DNA of 64,000 nt, taken from positions 1 through 64,000 of the forward strand of contig CBDCNP010000002.1 of the NCBI GenBank assembly GCA_965219415.1. The letters run 5' to 3'. Below, in pieces: positions 43,613 to 50,491 of this stretch (position 1 is its first letter; every line of letters starts with the position of its first letter). The notes beneath the pieces are model-generated. The model did no database searches. It was not told where the DNA came from and saw only the letters and a list, made by a program, of their open reading frames with translations. The translations under genes were made by a program, and so were the position numbers. This DNA comes from Candidatus Marinacidobacterales bacterium (GTDB lineage: Bacteria; Acidobacteriota; Vicinamibacteria; Marinacidobacterales; DATDRI01).

Positions 43613-44635
43613 ATGAACGCTTTGGTCGCGGCTCTCGTCCTTCTCGGAGCGCAGGGCACCGAGGAACCTACGCATCGATGGTACCGCGGCAATACGCACG
43701 TCCACACCGATCGAAGCGACGGCAACGCGTCGCCTGAAGTCGTTGCCGAGTGGTACCAGCGGCTCGGCTTTCACTTCATCGTCATCACCGATCACAACCA
43801 AATGACACCCGTGTCGGAGCTGAACGCCCGCCTCGGAACACCTGGCGAGTTTTTGGTGATCGCCGGTGAGGAGGTCTCCGCATCTCACGAGGGGCGACCG
43901 GTGCATCTGAACGGCCTTGCGATCTCCAACGCCGTGGCGCCGGTGTCGGGAACCTCGGTACGCGATGTCATCGACGCCAACGCACGCGCCATTCGCCGCC
44001 AGGACGGTATCCCGCAGCTCAACCACCCCAACTTGGGTTGGTTCATGACCGTCGAGGCACTGGTCGCCACTCGGACGATCCGCCATTTGGAGATCGTGAA
44101 CGCTCACCCGGTCAACAACTCCTGGGGAGGAGGCGGCGCCCCTTCCGCCGAGGCGCTCTGGGATGCGCGGCTCTCGGAAGGGCGGGTGTTCTACGGGATC
44201 GCCTCCGACGACGCGCACGACTACGAGTCCTTCGCCCCCATGACGACCGATCGAGGCCCCAGCGCCAGCGCGAATCCTGGCCGTGCCTGGATCTTGGTGC
44301 GCGCACCCGCCCTCACCGCCGATGCGAATGCCGCGTCGATCGAGGCCGGCAGTTTCTACGCCAGCACCGGCGTCGAGTTCCTGGCGTACGAGAGCGATTC
44401 GCACGGCATTCGCCTCCGTCTGCCGAAGAGCTATCGTTACAAAGTGGCGGTACCCGGCGGACTCCGCTACCGCACGTTTTTCATTGGACTGAACGGCGAG
44501 GTGCTAAAAAAGGACGACACCGTGCAGCCGGTCTATCTTTTCGATGGGAGCGAGCGTTACGTTAGGGTGCGAGTCGAAGCATCCGACGGCACCCTGGCCT
44601 GGACGCAGCCCGTTTTTTCCACGAACCCCAAGTAA
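43613..44635 (+). CDS. PHP-domain metallohydrolase (CehA/McbA-like)
   Basis: GNTHVHT, ITDHN, LNHP, SDDAH. Confidence 0.85.
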   Translation: MNALVAALVLLGAQGTEEPTHRWYRGNTHVHTDRSDGNASPEVVAEWYQRLGFHFIVITDHNQMTPVSELNARLGTPGEFLVIAGEEVSASHEGRPVHLNGLAISNAVAPVSGTSVRDVIDANARAIRRQDGIPQLNHPNLGWFMTVEALVATRTIRHLEIVNAHPVNNSWGGGGAPSAEALWDARLSEGRVFYGIASDDAHDYESFAPMTTDRGPSASANPGRAWILVRAPALTADANAASIEAGSFYASTGVEFLAYESDSHGIRLRLPKSYRYKVAVPGGLRYRTFFIGLNGEVLKKDDTVQPVYLFDGSERYVRVRVEASDGTLAWTQPVFSTNPK

Positions 44636-45805
44636 TGACGTCCCTCGACTCAGGAAAAGAAAAGATCGCCTGGACCGGCTCCCACCTGCCGATGCTGCGA
44701 GACATCCGGGACGAGTTTGCCACAACACGTCCTTTCGACGGCCTAACGATTGGCATCTGCCTCCACCTCGAACCCAAGACCGCCGTTCTCTGCTCTGTGT
44801 TGTCGGCGGGTGGCGCTACCGTCGCCATCACAGGAAGCCCAAGAACAACCCAAGCCGATGTGGCTACGGCCCTGGCCGAGTCCGGGCATCACGTCTACCA
44901 TGACCAAACCCGCGGGGCCCATAGCCACGACGATAACATCCATCGCGTTCTGTCCCATCAACCGAACCTGCTGCTCGACAACGGCGCCGATCTGGTGGCG
45001 GCGTGGATTGAGACCGCGTCCGAGGCCCGGCTCCTGGGTGGGAACGGAGGAAACGACGACCGGCGCGAACCGCTTGCGAGAGGAGCTCGCCAGCCGCGTC
45101 GAATTCCCGGTGATCGTGATCAACGACAGTCCATTGAAACGAATCATCGAGAATGAGCATGGCGTGGGCCAGACCGTGGTCGAGGCGTTCATGCGGGTCA
45201 CGAACCTCATGGTGCCGGCAAAACGTTTCGTGGTGTTTGGATACGGTTGGTGCGGCCGCGGCATCGCGCGCACGTTGAAGCGGCTGGGGGGGCAAGTCGC
45301 GGTGGTCGAGCCCGATGCGGCCAAGGCGCTAGAGGCGGCGCTGGACGGCATGATCGTGCGAGAGGCAGAAAAGCTCCTTGGATGGGCGACCGTCCTCATT
45401 ACCGCGACTGGAAGACCCGGCGTGCTCGAGGTCGCGGACTTCGAAAAAATGGCGAACGGAGCGATTTTGGCCAACGCCGGCCACTTCAGTTGGGAGATCG
45501 ACGTAGAAGGTTTGAGGGCGTCCGCGAAGGAAACGACGCACATGGGAGAGTCGATCGCGGAGTTCGAGCTTGCCGACGGCAAGCGGCTTTCGCTCCTAAC
45601 CGGCGGCGAGATGGTCAACCTCGCGGGTGGGGGTGGAAATCCTGCCGAGACGATGGACATGGGGCTGAGCCTTCAGGCCCGTTCACTGGAGCTGGTGGCC
45701 CGACAGGATCCGACGCTCCGCCCGGGGCCGCAGCCCGTGCCGAGTGAAGTCAATGAACGGGTCGCCAAGCTTATGCTCCGGAAGCTTCGAGAACCCACCG
45801 AGTAA
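44635..45805 (+). pseudogene. ahcY: Adenosylhomocysteinase-like protein, frameshifted near 45040
   Basis: CLHLEPKT and DNGADL in one frame; EETTTG, GYGWCGRG, NAGHF and VNLA in the next. Confidence 0.8.
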
Positions 45806-45950
45806 CATCGTTAGCCATCCCCGGACGTCGTTCGCATGAGCGGCGGTCTTCAGGCTGCAGCGGTCGGCTTGTCCTCTACAACCATCGACAACTCCGATTC
45901 CCTCTTAGAGCTTGGTAGCACGGCCCCGCCCTCGGGGCCCCACTTTTCTA

Positions 45951-45979
45951 TTGACATTTCCGCGACCGAGCGGTATTTA
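45951..45979 (+). promoter_or_regulatory. Sigma70-like promoter
   Basis: TTGACA-N17-TATTTA. Confidence 0.65.
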
Positions 45980-45985
45980 GCAGAC

Positions 45986-46335
45986 TAGCATTCCGCGATG
46001 GCACGCAGGTGCTACCGCGAACCGGAAAGGAGACACCTTGTGACTCCACCTGGCCATTCGGGGCCTTCAAAAGGCTGAGTCCGGTCGCACGGAACACGCG
46101 AATCCGGTCGCTTTTTTGAAGGTTGGCTTACGAGACCGTTTCGACTTAGGCCCGGCCTACGAACGTGTCCTCAGATCGTTGACCCGGGTGGGTGCCACCG
46201 ATTGGGTGCCCCCCAGTCCGATGGGGTCCGGCTTCCACAAGCCTTGGGGTCGGTTCTTCTAGTCACCCACTCCTTGGGTTGCTTCCCAAGCAGCCTGAAA
46301 AGGCGGGGTGTGCACGTGGCTCGCTCCGCCTTTTC
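45986..46335 (+). ncRNA. Candidate structured non-coding RNA of unknown family, ~350 nt
   Basis: At least 8 consecutive stem-loops between a promoter and a terminator, with no credible long ORF. Confidence 0.55.
46297..46335 (+). terminator. Intrinsic terminator-like hairpin
   Basis: GAAAAGGCGGGGTG-N11-CGCTCCGCCTTTTC. Confidence 0.65.
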
Positions 46336-46350
46336 GCATCCGGCCTGCCC

Positions 46351-46379
46351 TTGCACGCTTCCCTCCGCACGATTAAGAT
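46351..46379 (+). promoter_or_regulatory. Sigma70-like promoter for the methyltransferase gene
   Basis: TTGCAC-N17-TAAGAT. Confidence 0.45.
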
Positions 46380-46475
46380 GCGACTCACGTTTGAATGCGC
46401 TGTATCAACTCCCGGGGCGAGCACCGCCACACCTTGGTCAGCCGAAATCGTCAACCGTGTTGGGGGTCAGCAACT

Positions 46476-47504
46476 ATGCCAGAACTCGATCCATCCAAAA
46501 TCATGCAAGTCGGCCTCGGTTACTGGGGCTCGAAATCTCTACTGAGCGCCGTGGAACTCGGCCTCTTCACCGAACTCGCGCGTCAACCGATGACCGGAAA
46601 GCAACTCGAGACGAAGCTGGGGCTTCACCCGCGCGCCACCTATGATTTCCTCGACGCGCTCTTAGCCATGGGCTTCCTGCGGCGGGAAGGAGACGGTGCG
46701 GGCGCCGTCTACCGCAACACCAACGAGACCGAGGCTTTCTTGGATCGAGAATCCCCTCGCTACATCGGCGGCATCCTCGAAATGACCAACGCGCGCCAGT
46801 TCGCTATCTGGAACGACCTCACCGAGGGGCTGCGCACCGGGAAGCCGCAAAACGAGGTGAAGCACACCGGCGAGTCCATCTTCCAGAAACTCTATGCTGA
46901 TCCTGCGGAGCTCGAGAGGTTCATGAACGCGATGACCGGCATTTCGATGGGCAACTTTCACGTCTTCGCACAGCAGTTCGATTTTTCGCCTTACAAAACG
47001 ATGTGCGACGCGGGCGGCGCGACAGCCCAGTTGTCGATCATTTGTGCGCAACACAACCCTCACTTGAGTTTCACCAGCTTCGATCTACCGGTGGTGGCAC
47101 CCATTGCGAAAAAGAACATCGACGCCGCCGGATTGAGCGAGCGCATCAAGACCGCCGAAGGTAGCTTCTTCGAAGATCCGCTGCCCCAAGCGGACCTCAT
47201 CACTATGGGACTGATCCTGCACGATTGGAACTTGGAAAAGAAAATGCACCTGATCCGATCGGCCCACGACGCCCTGCTCCCTGGTGGTGCCTTCGTTGTT
47301 ATCGAGAACCTCATCGATGACGCACGGCGAGAAAACGCCTTCGGCCTCTTGATGTCCCTCATGATGTTGCTCGAGTTCGGCGATGCCTTCGACTACAGCG
47401 GCGCCGACTTCGACGGCTGGTGTCGCGAGGTGGGCTTCGAGCGGACCGAGGTACTTCATCTCGCCGGACCGGCGAGCGCCGCGATCGCCTACAAAGCGAA
47501 GTGA
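46476..47504 (+). CDS. SAM-dependent O-methyltransferase with dimerisation domain
   Basis: SAVELGLF, CDAGGATA, FDLP, ILHDW. Confidence 0.9.
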   Translation: MPELDPSKIMQVGLGYWGSKSLLSAVELGLFTELARQPMTGKQLETKLGLHPRATYDFLDALLAMGFLRREGDGAGAVYRNTNETEAFLDRESPRYIGGILEMTNARQFAIWNDLTEGLRTGKPQNEVKHTGESIFQKLYADPAELERFMNAMTGISMGNFHVFAQQFDFSPYKTMCDAGGATAQLSIICAQHNPHLSFTSFDLPVVAPIAKKNIDAAGLSERIKTAEGSFFEDPLPQADLITMGLILHDWNLEKKMHLIRSAHDALLPGGAFVVIENLIDDARRENAFGLLMSLMMLLEFGDAFDYSGADFDGWCREVGFERTEVLHLAGPASAAIAYKAK

Positions 47505-47526: not shown

Positions 47527-48699
47527 TCATGTAGCGGCCGTCCCGACGTCGAAAGCGACGGCGAGACGGTCCGCCACCGCGAGCCCATCGAGTGTCGGCC
47601 GGAGCCAATCTTCGTCGAGCTCGAGGAGTCCGTCGTCAGAGAGCTTCGCCACCAACTCTTCGTTGACCTTCAGAAGGTCGATGTGGAACTGCTCGCGCAC
47701 CCAAGTGAGATCCAAGCCGTCCTTTGTGCGTATGCGGAGCATGACCGCTTCTAAGAGGAAATCCTTGGCGCTCAGCTTCTCCCGTCCCTCGACCGCGCTT
47801 TCTCCTCGGTCGATCTTCTTTTTCCAGTCGAGGAGCAAACGTTCGTTCCAAAAACGGGAGCGACCATCGAAGGAATGCGCCGAGGGCCCCAGACCGAGAT
47901 AAGGGGTGTGATACCAGTATTTCTGGTTGTGGCGCGAGCGGTGCGCTTCGGAGCGGGCGAAGTTGGAGACTTCGTAGCCCTCATAGCCGGCGTCGGCGAG
48001 AAACTCGTGGGTGAGACGAAAGAGCTCCGCCTGTCTGTCCTCCGAAGCCTCCATGACCTCCCCTCCCCTCTTCCTCCGTCCAAAGAGGGTCTCGTCGTGA
48101 ATCGTCAGCTGGTAGCACGACAGATGATCGGGCGCTAGAGCGACGGCCGCCTCGAGCTCTTTTCGCCAATCGGAGACCTCCTGGCCTGGACGGCCGTAGA
48201 TTAGATCGAGCGAAAGCTCGTCAAAACCAGCCTTGCGAGCAAGTGCAACGCTACGGCCAACGTCCTCAACGGTATGGTGTCGACCGAGCCACCGAAGCGC
48301 TTCGTCGTCCATTGCCTGAACGCCGAGCGAGAGGGTTCGTATGCCGAGCTCGTGCCAGACGGAGAGCGAAGAACGCTTTACGTCTTCGGGATTGGCCTCC
48401 AGAAACCACCGGCAAACGGGATCTAGCCAACCCTTATCGGCGATGGCCTCTGCGATCTCGGACAGACCCTCCGCGTGGAGGAACGATGGGGTACCGCCTC
48501 CGAAGTACACGGTGTCGAAGCCTCGAATTTCCCCATCCGAGAGCTCGATCTCCCTCAACAAATGTGAGACGAATCGCTCCTGCCTCGAGCGGTCTCCCGT
48601 CAGCACCGCGAAATCGCAGTAGGGACAGATCGAAGAGCAGAAGGGAATGTGAACGTAGAGTCCAGGCTTACTCGACTTGGAAGACCGATCAGGAGTCAT
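47527..48699 (-). CDS. hemW: Radical SAM heme chaperone HemW
   Basis: LYVHIPFCSSICPYCDF, YFGGGTPS, YEVSNFA, HNQKYW; directly downstream of lepA. Confidence 0.92.
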   Translation of the reverse strand: MTPDRSSKSSKPGLYVHIPFCSSICPYCDFAVLTGDRSRQERFVSHLLREIELSDGEIRGFDTVYFGGGTPSFLHAEGLSEIAEAIADKGWLDPVCRWFLEANPEDVKRSSLSVWHELGIRTLSLGVQAMDDEALRWLGRHHTVEDVGRSVALARKAGFDELSLDLIYGRPGQEVSDWRKELEAAVALAPDHLSCYQLTIHDETLFGRRKRGGEVMEASEDRQAELFRLTHEFLADAGYEGYEVSNFARSEAHRSRHNQKYWYHTPYLGLGPSAHSFDGRSRFWNERLLLDWKKKIDRGESAVEGREKLSAKDFLLEAVMLRIRTKDGLDLTWVREQFHIDLLKVNEELVAKLSDDGLLELDEDWLRPTLDGLAVADRLAVAFDVGTAAT

Positions 48700-50491
48700 C
48701 CGTCTTGAGGACGGCAACGAAGGCCGCTTGAGGAATCTCGACCGCACCCACCATCTTCATGCGCCTCTTCCCTTCCTTTTGCTTCTCGAGGAGCTTGCGC
48801 TTGCGGGTGATGTCTCCGCCGTAGCACCGGGCGGTGACGTCTTTGCGGTAGGCGTTGATGGTGGTGCGCGCGATGATATCACCTCCGATAGCACCCTGAA
48901 TGGCTATTTTGAACTGCTGCTTGGGTATAGCTTCCGCGAGACGCTCACAGTAGTGAAGCGCCCGCGGACGGGCCTTGTCCACGTGTACGAGCTGCGAGAG
49001 GGCATCGACACTCTCGCCGTTGACGAGAATATCCACCTTGGCAATCTTCGTCTCACGATAGTCGAGCATCTCGTAATCGAAGGAACCATAGCCCTGAGTG
49101 ACGGTCTTCAGGCGGTCATAGAAGTCGAAGAGCACCTCGGCCAAAGGCAGCTCCGACGTGAGCTCCACCCTCCCCACCGCGAGGTAGTGGAACGTCGTAT
49201 TCACACCGCGCCGCTCACGGCAAAGCTCCATGACGACCCCTAAGTACTTCTCGGGCATCATCACCGAAGCCTTGATGTAAGGCTCCTCGGACTTGATGAC
49301 ATGCATCGGATCTGGGAAGCGGCTCGGGTTGTCTACCATCACCACACCTTCCTTCTCGAGGGTGACGCGGTACTTAACCGACGGAGCGGAGAGCAGCAAG
49401 GAGAGGCCGTACTCCCGCTGCAGGCGTTCCTGGATCACATCGAGATGCAAAAGGCCGAGAAAGCCGCAGCGAAAGCCATACCCGAGAGCCGCCGAAGAGT
49501 CCTTCTCATAGGTCAGCGCCGGATCGTTGAGTGTGAGCTTGTCCAGCGCTTTCGTCAGGTCTTCGTAGTCGTCGGTGGACATCGGGTAGATGGAAGAGAA
49601 GACGACCGGCTTGGCTTCCTTGTACCCGGGCAAAGGCTTCAGCGCCGGGTTCTCTTTGTGGGTGATGGTGTCGCCGATGGCAATGTCGTGAACCGCCTTG
49701 ATATTGGCGAGCACGTAACCCACCGCCCCCGCGGAAAGCTCCTCTTGCTTTACCCGCTTGAGCTTGAGCAGCCCCACCTCCTCGACATCGTATTCCTTCC
49801 CACTGTGCATCAACCGTATCGTCTGTCCGGGCTTCACGGTTCCGTGCTCGATGCGGCAATACAAAACCACGCCGCGATAGACGTCGTACTGCGCGTCGAA
49901 GATGAGCGCCTGTAGCGGAGCCTCGGGATCGCCGGTGGGAGCGGGTAGCCTGTCGACGATGGCCTCCAGAAGCTCGTCGATGCCCTGGCCCAGTTTGGCC
50001 GAAACGGGAATCGCTTCCAGCGCATCGAGCCCCAAATCCGTTTCAATTTCCTCTTGGACTCTGTCGATGTCGGCCGCAGGGAGATCGATCTTATTGATGA
50101 CCGGAAGCAAAGCGAGATCGTGCTCCATCGCCAGATAGAGGTTTGCCACCGTCTGGGCCTCGACACCTTGAGCGGCGTCCACCACGATGAGCGCCCCATC
50201 GCTGGACATCAAGGAGCGGCGCACTTCGTGCGAGAAGTCCACGTGGCCAGGAGTATCGATGAGATTGAGTTGGTACTCGCGACCATCCTTCGCCTCATAG
50301 TGAAGGCTGACGGTGTTGCTTTTAATCGTTATCCCCCTCTCGCGCTCCAAATCCATGGAGTCCAGGAGCTGGTCGCGGAACTCCCGGTCGGAGACCCCTC
50401 CACACCGCTGGATGAGGCGGTCGGCGAGGGTGGATTTCCCGTGATCGATGTGGGCGATGATGCAGAAGTTACGAATTTGCGTTAGCGACAT
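48689..50491 (-). CDS. lepA: Elongation factor 4 (LepA)
   Basis: IRNFCIIAHIDHGKSTLADR, GFLGLLH, CYGGDITRKRKLLEKQKEGK. Confidence 0.98.
   Translation of the reverse strand: MSLTQIRNFCIIAHIDHGKSTLADRLIQRCGGVSDREFRDQLLDSMDLERERGITIKSNTVSLHYEAKDGREYQLNLIDTPGHVDFSHEVRRSLMSSDGALIVVDAAQGVEAQTVANLYLAMEHDLALLPVINKIDLPAADIDRVQEEIETDLGLDALEAIPVSAKLGQGIDELLEAIVDRLPAPTGDPEAPLQALIFDAQYDVYRGVVLYCRIEHGTVKPGQTIRLMHSGKEYDVEEVGLLKLKRVKQEELSAGAVGYVLANIKAVHDIAIGDTITHKENPALKPLPGYKEAKPVVFSSIYPMSTDDYEDLTKALDKLTLNDPALTYEKDSSAALGYGFRCGFLGLLHLDVIQERLQREYGLSLLLSAPSVKYRVTLEKEGVVMVDNPSRFPDPMHVIKSEEPYIKASVMMPEKYLGVVMELCRERRGVNTTFHYLAVGRVELTSELPLAEVLFDFYDRLKTVTQGYGSFDYEMLDYRETKIAKVDILVNGESVDALSQLVHVDKARPRALHYCERLAEAIPKQQFKIAIQGAIGGDIIARTTINAYRKDVTARCYGGDITRKRKLLEKQKEGKRRMKMVGAVEIPQAAFVAVLKTDDS

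Follow-up and report, generated by a model that had tools for sequence, protein, structure and literature searches.

A very probable free-standing gene for a large structured RNA in a narrow clade of Acidobacteriota

Between two protein-coding genes of a 'Candidatus Marinacidobacterales' bacterium (assembly GCA_965219415.1, contig CBDCNP010000002.1, of which the first 64,000 nucleotides were analysed and are here termed the window) lies an element at 45986-46340 on the + strand that is, with little doubt, a free-standing gene for a genuine structured non-coding RNA (ncRNA). A first-pass annotation had proposed an unannotated large structured RNA at this site, and the present analysis upholds that proposal: conservation extends from a promoter block to a terminator-like hairpin, its homologues are separated by frame-breaking insertions and deletions (indels) and by compensatory changes within helices, and it has no match in Rfam.

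Sponge-dwelling Acidobacteriota are uncultured and have been studied only via metagenomes. To our knowledge, nothing is known of RNA regulators in these organisms. Adding this gene to RNA family libraries would allow genome annotation to fill the interval between the two protein-coding genes. Large structured RNAs are far rarer than short small RNAs and often have unusual biochemistry, which would be the upside here should the fold prove as complex as it looks. The RNA is of unusual size and has well-marked limits, but it is known from very few genomes and its host is uncultured; it could be used as a marker of the activity of this clade in metatranscriptomes, and offers candidate parts that can be tested, namely a pair of C-rich loops, a ribosome-binding site locked in a stem and a possible pseudoknot.

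Conservation and distribution of the element

A search for homologues, as suggested by the first-pass annotation, recovered the element in the genomes of two relatives and in two metagenome contigs. Among 41 genomes, consisting of the window's own (G000) and 40 relatives, blastn aligned it to a member of the same genus, G001, at 82% identity over query positions 4-402, and to a member of another genus of the family, G003, at 69% identity over query positions 76-394. An exact motif of 21 specified bases, taken from an invariant hairpin of the element, was present in two metagenome-assembled genomes (MAGs) of a species collection, listed as 'Candidatus Marinacidobacterales', and in two metagenome contigs, L009 and L010; the metagenomes and the genome collection were each covered by a single exact-motif scan.

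The alignment of five sequences (A2: window, G001, G003, L009 and L010) has a mean column identity of 83%. Similarity begins abruptly at a 17-nucleotide (nt) block containing a -35 hexamer and ends just beyond a terminator-like hairpin, the conserved element spanning the promoter block at 45943 through the end of that hairpin at 46335. The sequence on either side of the element is unrelated in G003, where the element itself has been retained from promoter block to terminator. RNAalifold predicted approximately 102-104 base pairs from the five sequences, and 102 pairs in 14 helices were counted. Standard pairs are formed by 94.2% of cells in these consensus helices, as against 35-50% when the partners are slid by one to three columns. 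Nine pairs are changed on both sides, compared with a mean of 4.2 in shuffled alignments (3 of 500 as high) and with one to five in the slid controls, and the covariation score of 0.173 stands against 0.142 in shuffles, none of 500 being as high. Indels of 1, 2, 4 and 5 nt are dispersed through the element, those in G003 measuring 2, 5, 4 and 2 nt, and no long open reading frame (ORF) with conserved ends was found on either strand across the five sequences. Whether the homologues might preserve a protein frame instead of base pairs had been raised as a test of the first-pass annotation; the indels break the frame and the pairs are kept. As judged from the aligned sequences, the element is conserved as base pairs and not as codons, unlike a protein-coding gene, and its consensus fold is partly supported.

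The folding energy is consistent with this pattern. The folding energy of 45986-46340 on the + strand is -154.2 kcal/mol, compared with a mean of -138.3 for dinucleotide shuffles (z -2.84, with none of 100 shuffles as low), whereas the - strand of the same interval gives a z of -1.62, with 7 of 100 shuffles as low. The + strands of the four homologues have z scores of -5.62, -3.94, -5.21 and -3.83, none of 60 shuffles being as low in any case; across all five + strands, z ranges from -2.5 to -5.6, below every shuffle. The comparison with shuffled controls proposed alongside the first-pass annotation therefore favours structure in each of the five sequences. Within the consensus helices of the five-sequence alignment G-U cells outnumber A-C cells by 53 to 14, on account of which the + strand is favoured, and the same helices read on the - strand have 86.5% of cells paired, as against 94.2% on the +.

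No known family accounts for the element. Nothing in the 64-kb window reaches the gathering score of any Rfam 15 family (4227 models), and with permissive filters and E<=10 the interval 45800-46500 gave only three chance rows with E values of 4.7-8.4, namely the animal microRNA models mir-328 at 16.3 bits (cut-off 70) and mir-483 at 16 (60), and H19_3 at 12.7 (46). The four homologous loci yielded three rows at E<=10, with E values of 2.7-3.2, none of which lies inside the RNA body; one of them, mir-577 on L010, overlies the promoter region. Identity with the housekeeping RNAs of G000 was considered and rejected, as their models match above their cut-offs elsewhere in the genome and none matches at this locus: RNase P RNA at C2:220999-221371 (300.9 bits), transfer-messenger RNA (tmRNA) at C3:2409293-2409640 (175.1 bits), 6S RNA at C1:796003-796178 (99.8 bits) and signal recognition particle (SRP) RNA at C3:1919880-1919979 (76.9 bits). 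The first-pass annotation, which had recognised no hallmarks of tmRNA, RNase P, SRP or riboswitches, agrees with this outcome, and the Rfam comparison that it recommended found no family at gathering score. A likeness of the 5' domain to T-box, cobalamin and S-adenosylhomocysteine (SAH) riboswitches and to P4 of RNase P, seen by eye, was set aside, there being no such Rfam model at E<=10.

The element was found in three of the eight genomes of the family; the five without it are 73-96% complete, and some of these absences may be gaps. A covariance model of the 5' domain (R1) gave three matches among 55 genomes of the order, none of them new, the RNA not being found in the other 52. In a 151-genome sample of the class R1 produced six matches at E<=0.1, of which three are real, the others scoring 20-24 bits with per-genome E values of 0.01-0.05; one of these latter, L026, looks like coding sequence. 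Similarly, a model of the 3' domain (R2) matched five of the 40 relatives at E<=0.1, three of these being real and the rest either terminator-only or 20-bit matches. The motif with up to three mismatches, scanned through a 401-genome sample of the phylum, was found in its own genome and at two further sites, each with three mismatches, and two motifs had 0 and 0 matches in viral contigs. A 38-bit, 40-nt blastn row in G024 was treated as chance. On these sequence searches the RNA is confined to a narrow clade of sponge-associated bacteria, comprising two genera of one acidobacterial family, and to two metagenome contigs. It is single-copy in the 8.05-Mb G000 genome, where hairpins with the same loops occur elsewhere (25, 6 and 5 for three loop motifs) on stems of 4-7 pairs, none of them resembling this RNA.

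Fold, boundaries and genomic setting

The helices of the RNA and the conserved strand that joins several of them are as follows.

45996..46017, + strand: P1 hairpin (helix 1), 7 pairs (45996-46002 / 46011-46017) around a loop that varies; pairing in 97.1% of cells
46029..46047, + strand: invariant hairpin GGAGACAC / GUGACUCC; helix 3, all 7 pairs of which are constant, around a 3-nt loop that varies
46063..46123, + strand: P3 long arm, lower stem 46063-46073 / 46113-46123 and upper stem 46079-46088 / 46098-46109
46143..46264, + strand: multibranch domain, helices 7-12
46143-46150 / 46258-46264, + strand: P4, in which pair 210:332 is U-A in two sequences and C-G in two
46152-46158 / 46247-46253, + strand: P5, part of the multibranch domain
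46174-46177 / 46225-46228, + strand: short helix, part of the multibranch domain
46184-46196 / 46205-46216, + strand: variable hairpin, part of the multibranch domain; local helix 86% paired
46230-46243, + strand: P8, an invariant hairpin with loop CCAC in the window and CCAA in the homologues
46261..46273, + strand: conserved strand AGUCAC(C/U)CA(C/U)UCC, partly closing P4
46276..46296, + strand: P9 hairpin with loop UUCCCAA; helix 13, 95.5% paired, 5 pairs varying one-sidedly

The best supported helices are P1, in which pair 62:77 is U-A in four sequences and C-G in one, both parts of P3, P4, P9 and the terminator. In P3 an asymmetric internal loop separates the two stems and the apical loop is 9 nt long; its helices 5 and 6 are 98.2% and 93.9% paired, with four both-sided changes (134:178, 142:172, 146:168 and 148:165). 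The hairpin at 46029-46047 contains a Shine-Dalgarno (SD)-like AAGGAG with a GUG 7 nt downstream. The conserved strand at 46261..46273 has more than one potential partner: it is complementary to GGGTGGGTG at 46186-46194, and in all five sequences it can also pair with the 5' hairpin through GUGACU/AGUCAC (6 pairs) and GGAG/CUCC (4 pairs).

All stems and hexamers listed by the first-pass annotation were confirmed at their given positions on re-reading the sequence, including its first hairpin (45994-46019), its long arm (46064-46075 / 46110-46122) and a hairpin at 46131-46143; some of its pairings are nevertheless better drawn otherwise. The helix it placed at the base of the multibranch domain, GGGTGGGTG (46186-46194) with CACCCACTC (46264-46272), is 84.4% paired in the five sequences, with one-sided changes that preserve pairs, but it competes with the 86%-paired local hairpin and would cross P4 (46143-50/46258-64), forming a pseudoknot. 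The letters of its hairpin at 46147-46159 are likewise present, but the alignment favours the long-range P4 and P5, and that at 46273-46290 is better drawn as 46276-84 / 46288-96, with CCC as its loop.

The signals that delimit the gene, and those of its neighbours, are listed below.

45922..45949, + strand: hairpin 45922-45939 and T-run, the intrinsic terminator of the AdoHcyase_NAD-domain gene upstream; the sole terminator-like site called in 45500-46800
45943..45979, + strand: conserved promoter block, a T-rich stretch, TTGACA (45951-45956), a 17-nt spacer and TATTTA (45974-45979)
45986..46340, + strand: RNA gene, approximately 355 nt, its ends placed from promoter and terminator
46297..46339, + strand: terminator-like hairpin, 16 pairs (46297-46313 / 46319-46335), then UUUUC
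46351..46379, + strand: promoter-like site ahead of the O-methyltransferase gene, TTGCAC-N17-TAAGAT
46476..47504, + strand: O-methyltransferase gene (PF00891 and PF08100), adjacent in four of the five loci, outside the RNA

The 45943..45979 block probably functions as a promoter. Its first 17 nt (45943-45959), which include the -35 hexamer, are identical in four of the five sequences, with two changes in L010, and the -10-like hexamer, TATTTA in the window, reads TAATTA or TAACTA in the homologous loci. No second exact copy of the 17-mer occurs in the genome; ten other sites match with up to three mismatches, every one of them having three. At the other end, the terminator-like hairpin (helix 14) is 93.7% paired and its pair 370:408 is changed on both sides.

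Four sponge metatranscriptome runs (X1-X4), all from one study, were found by an index search to carry part of the stretch. Each has one contig on 45600-46800, of 287, 236, 244 and 305 nt, and these map end to end, with no loose ends, to 46005-46291, 46024-46259, 45998-46241 and 45999-46304, all entirely within the RNA gene. The X4 contig is a strain variant in which 46193 T>C and 46194 G>A convert two wobble pairs of the 46184-96/46205-16 helix to Watson-Crick pairs; 46211 C>T adjoins the same helix, where a G-C pair would become G-U, and the T-run at 46112 has one T fewer. There was no cover of the flanks (45600-45997 and 46305-46800) in any of the four runs, which is not counted as evidence. 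These contigs are suggestive of transcription; the discrete + strand transcript anticipated by the first-pass annotation is matched as regards position, but contigs do not give its strand or ends.

The upstream AdoHcyase_NAD-domain gene ends at 45805 and the O-methyltransferase ATG is at 46476, leaving a gap of 670 nt, precisely the size first noted. The upstream neighbour encodes a 351-aa protein matching only the NAD-binding domain of S-adenosylhomocysteine (AdoHcy) hydrolase, and the terminator at 45922..45949 marks the end of the upstream transcription unit. The 46351..46379 site, with similar hexamers at the matching place in G001 and L009, probably serves the downstream O-methyltransferase gene, which lies on the same strand 130-165 nt downstream of the RNA in four of the five loci. 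In G003 the RNA is instead followed by a convergent peptidase S9 gene, and no O-methyltransferase orthologue was found in that genome with this query. Conversely, G004 has a methyltransferase orthologue (59% identity) behind an unrelated upstream region, on which R1, with filters off, scored at best 8.4 bits (E 0.22), indicating no RNA. The upstream neighbours of the RNA differ in every genus. Because G003 has the RNA without the gene and G004 the gene without the RNA, the RNA is very probably not a methyltransferase leader, and it is likely to be independent of the neighbouring gene; this separation, together with the second promoter-like site at 46351-46379, supports the earlier suggestion of an independent transcript.

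Several further features of the surrounding region were observed. In G001 the RNA directly follows an amidase gene, whereas in the window two genes that G001 lacks (43613-45805), for a PHP-domain protein and for the 351-aa AdoHcy hydrolase NAD-binding-domain protein, lie between the amidase and the RNA. Downstream of the methyltransferase gene, a HemN-like radical S-adenosylmethionine gene and lepA are arranged convergently (47527-50491, - strand); as these are core housekeeping genes, the RNA appears to reside in a core chromosomal region with no obvious mobile island. The same-genus genome G002 is homologous to the window only from 47347 onwards, a point within the last 46 codons of the methyltransferase gene (L034, G002:C23, approximately position 1489), and upstream of that point are an amidohydrolase fragment and an FHA-domain protein unrelated to the window; this genome is without the RNA and most of the methyltransferase gene, through deletion, rearrangement or misassembly. 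The G004 orthologue (L030, G004:C34:40283-41299) has one in-frame TAG. In L009 (1024-1600) the methyltransferase frame ends at 1515 after 163 codons, with more stops beyond, representing either a broken gene or a contig error.

Possible modes of action

The RNA is tentatively proposed to be a trans-acting, base-pairing regulator whose C-rich loops bind G-rich ribosome-binding regions. It would be made from its own promoter, ended by its own terminator hairpin, and act in trans. Hairpins P8 (46230-46243) and P9 (46276-96) would present predicted single-stranded C-rich loops, which could pair with G-rich ribosome-binding regions of mRNAs and so block or modulate translation. Large multi-hairpin regulatory RNAs of Firmicutes pair with ribosome-binding sites through C-rich loops. 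Here, the P8 loop has CCA as its first three letters in all five sequences, followed by C in the window and by A in every homologue, with a predicted unpaired probability of 0.75-1.00 throughout; the P9 loop has CCC in all five, with a predicted unpaired probability of 0.79-1.00. Both are accordingly conserved C-rich loops that are single-stranded by prediction rather than by probing. A candidate target lies next door, as the O-methyltransferase mRNA contains UUGGGGG, complementary to the P9 loop UUCCCAA. This run is found 9-10 nt before the ATG in all four loci with both genes, and the G004 orthologue, which has no RNA, carries GAGGAG. The G-run replaces a GGAG-type ribosome-binding site in the window, L002, L009 and L010, and the O-methyltransferase 5' untranslated region (46386-46475) is well conserved between the window, G001 and L009. 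RNAduplex comparison of the whole RNA with O-methyltransferase start regions gave huge internal loops that are not meaningful, and was not used.

A number of observations weigh against this account. The match between loop and UUGGGGG consists of 7 pairs including two G-U and is possibly due to chance. G003 retains both loops unchanged despite being without the candidate target, and blastn-short found no long antisense match of the RNA in its own genome, only chance matches of 13-18 nt with E values of at least 0.14. The strictest conservation is in the stem at 46029-46047 and not in a loop, a pattern more in keeping with protein binding or a structural switch than with simple seed pairing. Several helices have rival pairings in the alignment, and the covariation rests on five sequences that are all near relatives, such that its power is low and kinship alone can beat shuffles. 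The first-pass annotation had given the RNA a promoter and a terminator of its own; the letters are present and the promoter block is conserved, but a consensus scan of 45500-46800 called neither, returning 0 promoter-like sites, hence not 45943..45979, and no terminator at 46297-46335, a hairpin that was missed because its T-run is short. TATTTA matches TATAAT at only 2-3 of 6 positions, making it a weak -10, and the U-tract 3' of the terminator-like hairpin has only four U. Finally, the metatranscriptome contigs cannot show strand, ends or level, all runs belong to one study and DNA can occur in RNA libraries. Taken as a whole, the explanation that combines a free-standing structured RNA gene with a trans-acting C-rich-loop mechanism is plausible, if rather likelier to need revision than to stand intact.

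The strongest competitor, doubtful but deserving serious consideration, is that the RNA does not regulate by base pairing at all and instead binds protein or adopts a tertiary fold, as a ribonucleoprotein (RNP) scaffold, a protein sequestrator or a ribozyme-like molecule. The contacts would then be made by the hairpin at 46029-46047, the strand at 46261-46273 and the two invariant loops, with the pseudoknot compacting the 3' domain. A length of approximately 355 nt with 14 helices, including a multibranch domain, suits such a molecule, and a hairpin invariant on both strands around a variable loop is typical of sequence-specific recognition or of alternative pairing. The possible pseudoknot helix, with its 84.4% pairing and pair-keeping one-sided changes, and the invariant long-range GUGACU/AGUCAC and GGAG/CUCC complementarity point the same way. 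Against it, no partner protein gene is linked to the RNA, whose neighbours differ among loci, and the narrow, patchy spread (searches missed the RNA in 5 of the 8 genomes of the family and in 52 of the order's 55, and gave no credible copy farther afield) would be unusual for a core RNP. The pseudoknot, moreover, shows no both-sided change and competes with an 86%-paired local helix, and the sequence, when read through, displays neither repeats of GGA type nor any other obvious protein-binding motif in multiple copies.

The SD-like sequence within the invariant hairpin raises a further reading, compatible with the others, in which the RNA is dual-functional and a short frame is translated into a micropeptide or used as a sensor.

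46040..46078, + strand: candidate micro-ORF of 12 codons, V/M-T-P-P-G-H-S-G-P-S-K-G-stop in the window, present in 5 of 5 sequences

On this reading the Pro-Pro-Gly run would stall ribosomes, and ribosome occupancy might remodel the overlapping P3. In its favour are the AAGGAG placed 7 nt before an invariant GUG, and the presence of both frame and stop (TGA in four sequences, TAA in one) in all five, with one synonymous change, CCT>CCC. GGAAAGGAGAC also has short exact matches elsewhere in the genome, 8 of 41 non-self rows overlapping query positions 31-53, as expected of a genuine ribosome-binding sequence. On the other hand, the SD sequence and start codon pair with each other in the invariant hairpin, and the prediction has both paired in every one of the five sequences, the unpaired probability being 0.00-0.08 for GGAG and 0.02 for GUG. 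The substitutions are mostly non-synonymous (codons 6-8 and 11-12) and track RNA pairing (e.g. 134:178, 142:172), an open frame as short as 12 codons is unremarkable by chance, and stalling at Pro-Pro-Gly is an assumption for this RNA. This reading is considered unlikely.

An outside chance of similar size attaches to a more elaborate possibility, that of a new class of riboregulator, switchable and coupled to translation, or of the RNA component of a new RNP, specific to sponge-associated Acidobacteria. The hairpin at 46029-46047 would lock the ribosome-binding site and GUG of the micro-ORF, and both of its strands have alternative partners in 46261-46273. That strand would in turn close either P4 or the pseudoknot helix first drawn by the first-pass annotation, and a ribosome, protein or ligand might flip the RNA between two folds, exposing or hiding the C-rich loops.

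It is improbable that the RNA is a long cis leader of the O-methyltransferase gene, attenuator- or riboswitch-like, with 46297-46335 as a regulated terminator and the short RNA as the terminated leader. The methyltransferase gene does lie on the same strand, 130-165 nt downstream, in four of five loci, and terminated leaders are commonly abundant in RNA-seq. Yet G003 retains the RNA, at 69% identity and with compensatory changes, without the methyltransferase; the G004 orthologue has another upstream region, where 8.4 bits was the best R1 score; a separate promoter-like site lies between RNA and gene in the window, G001 and L009; and Rfam offers no riboswitch or leader family at E<=10. An anti-terminator role for the 3' strand of P3 was considered and dropped, as its complementarity is only that of an A-run with a U-run and is not kept in G003. 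Least credible of all is a functionless intergenic remnant whose similarity reflects recent ancestry and whose stems reflect G+C-rich sequence: homologues are few and of one family, and G002 of the same genus is without the element, but at 69% inter-genus identity 94.2% of cells are paired with nine both-sided pair changes, the element has been kept from promoter block to terminator between unrelated flanks in G003, z is below all shuffles in 5 of 5 sequences, and contigs occur in RNA libraries.

Comparison with known RNAs

Full-text searching of the literature, covering articles rather than their supplementary files, returned no description of this RNA. It resembles RNase P RNA and tmRNA in its size range of 350-400 nt, promoter-like block and multibranch fold, but differs from these, and from 6S and SRP RNA, in matching none of their models. 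Like riboswitch and attenuator leaders, it precedes a gene on the same strand in four of five loci and has a terminator-like hairpin at its end; in contrast to such leaders, the RNA and the gene are separable, as G003 and G004 illustrate, the RNA has its own promoter block with a second promoter-like site beyond it, and no such Rfam model matches it.

In terms of the trans-acting mechanism proposed above, the nearest parallels are RNAIII of Staphylococcus and RNAs of the RsaE/RoxS type. The likeness extends to a length of several hundred nt with many hairpins, an own promoter and terminator and repeated, conserved C-rich loops that are exposed (here P8 and P9, by prediction), and, for RNAIII, to a possible short ORF within the RNA. 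The differences are that the RNA has no Rfam match to those families and belongs to the phylum Acidobacteriota, and that its best-conserved element is a stem hiding an SD-like sequence and not a loop.

OLE, GOLLD, ROOL, HEARO and the raiA motif offer a broader comparison. As with the present RNA, these are structured, multi-domain and free-standing, their function is obscure, they came to light through comparative sequence analysis and they are represented in RNA libraries. The RNA described here differs in having no match to their Rfam models, in being shorter than most of them, and in a much narrower distribution (three genomes and two contigs) with no constant partner gene. It belongs to no described family and is a lineage-specific structured bacterial ncRNA.

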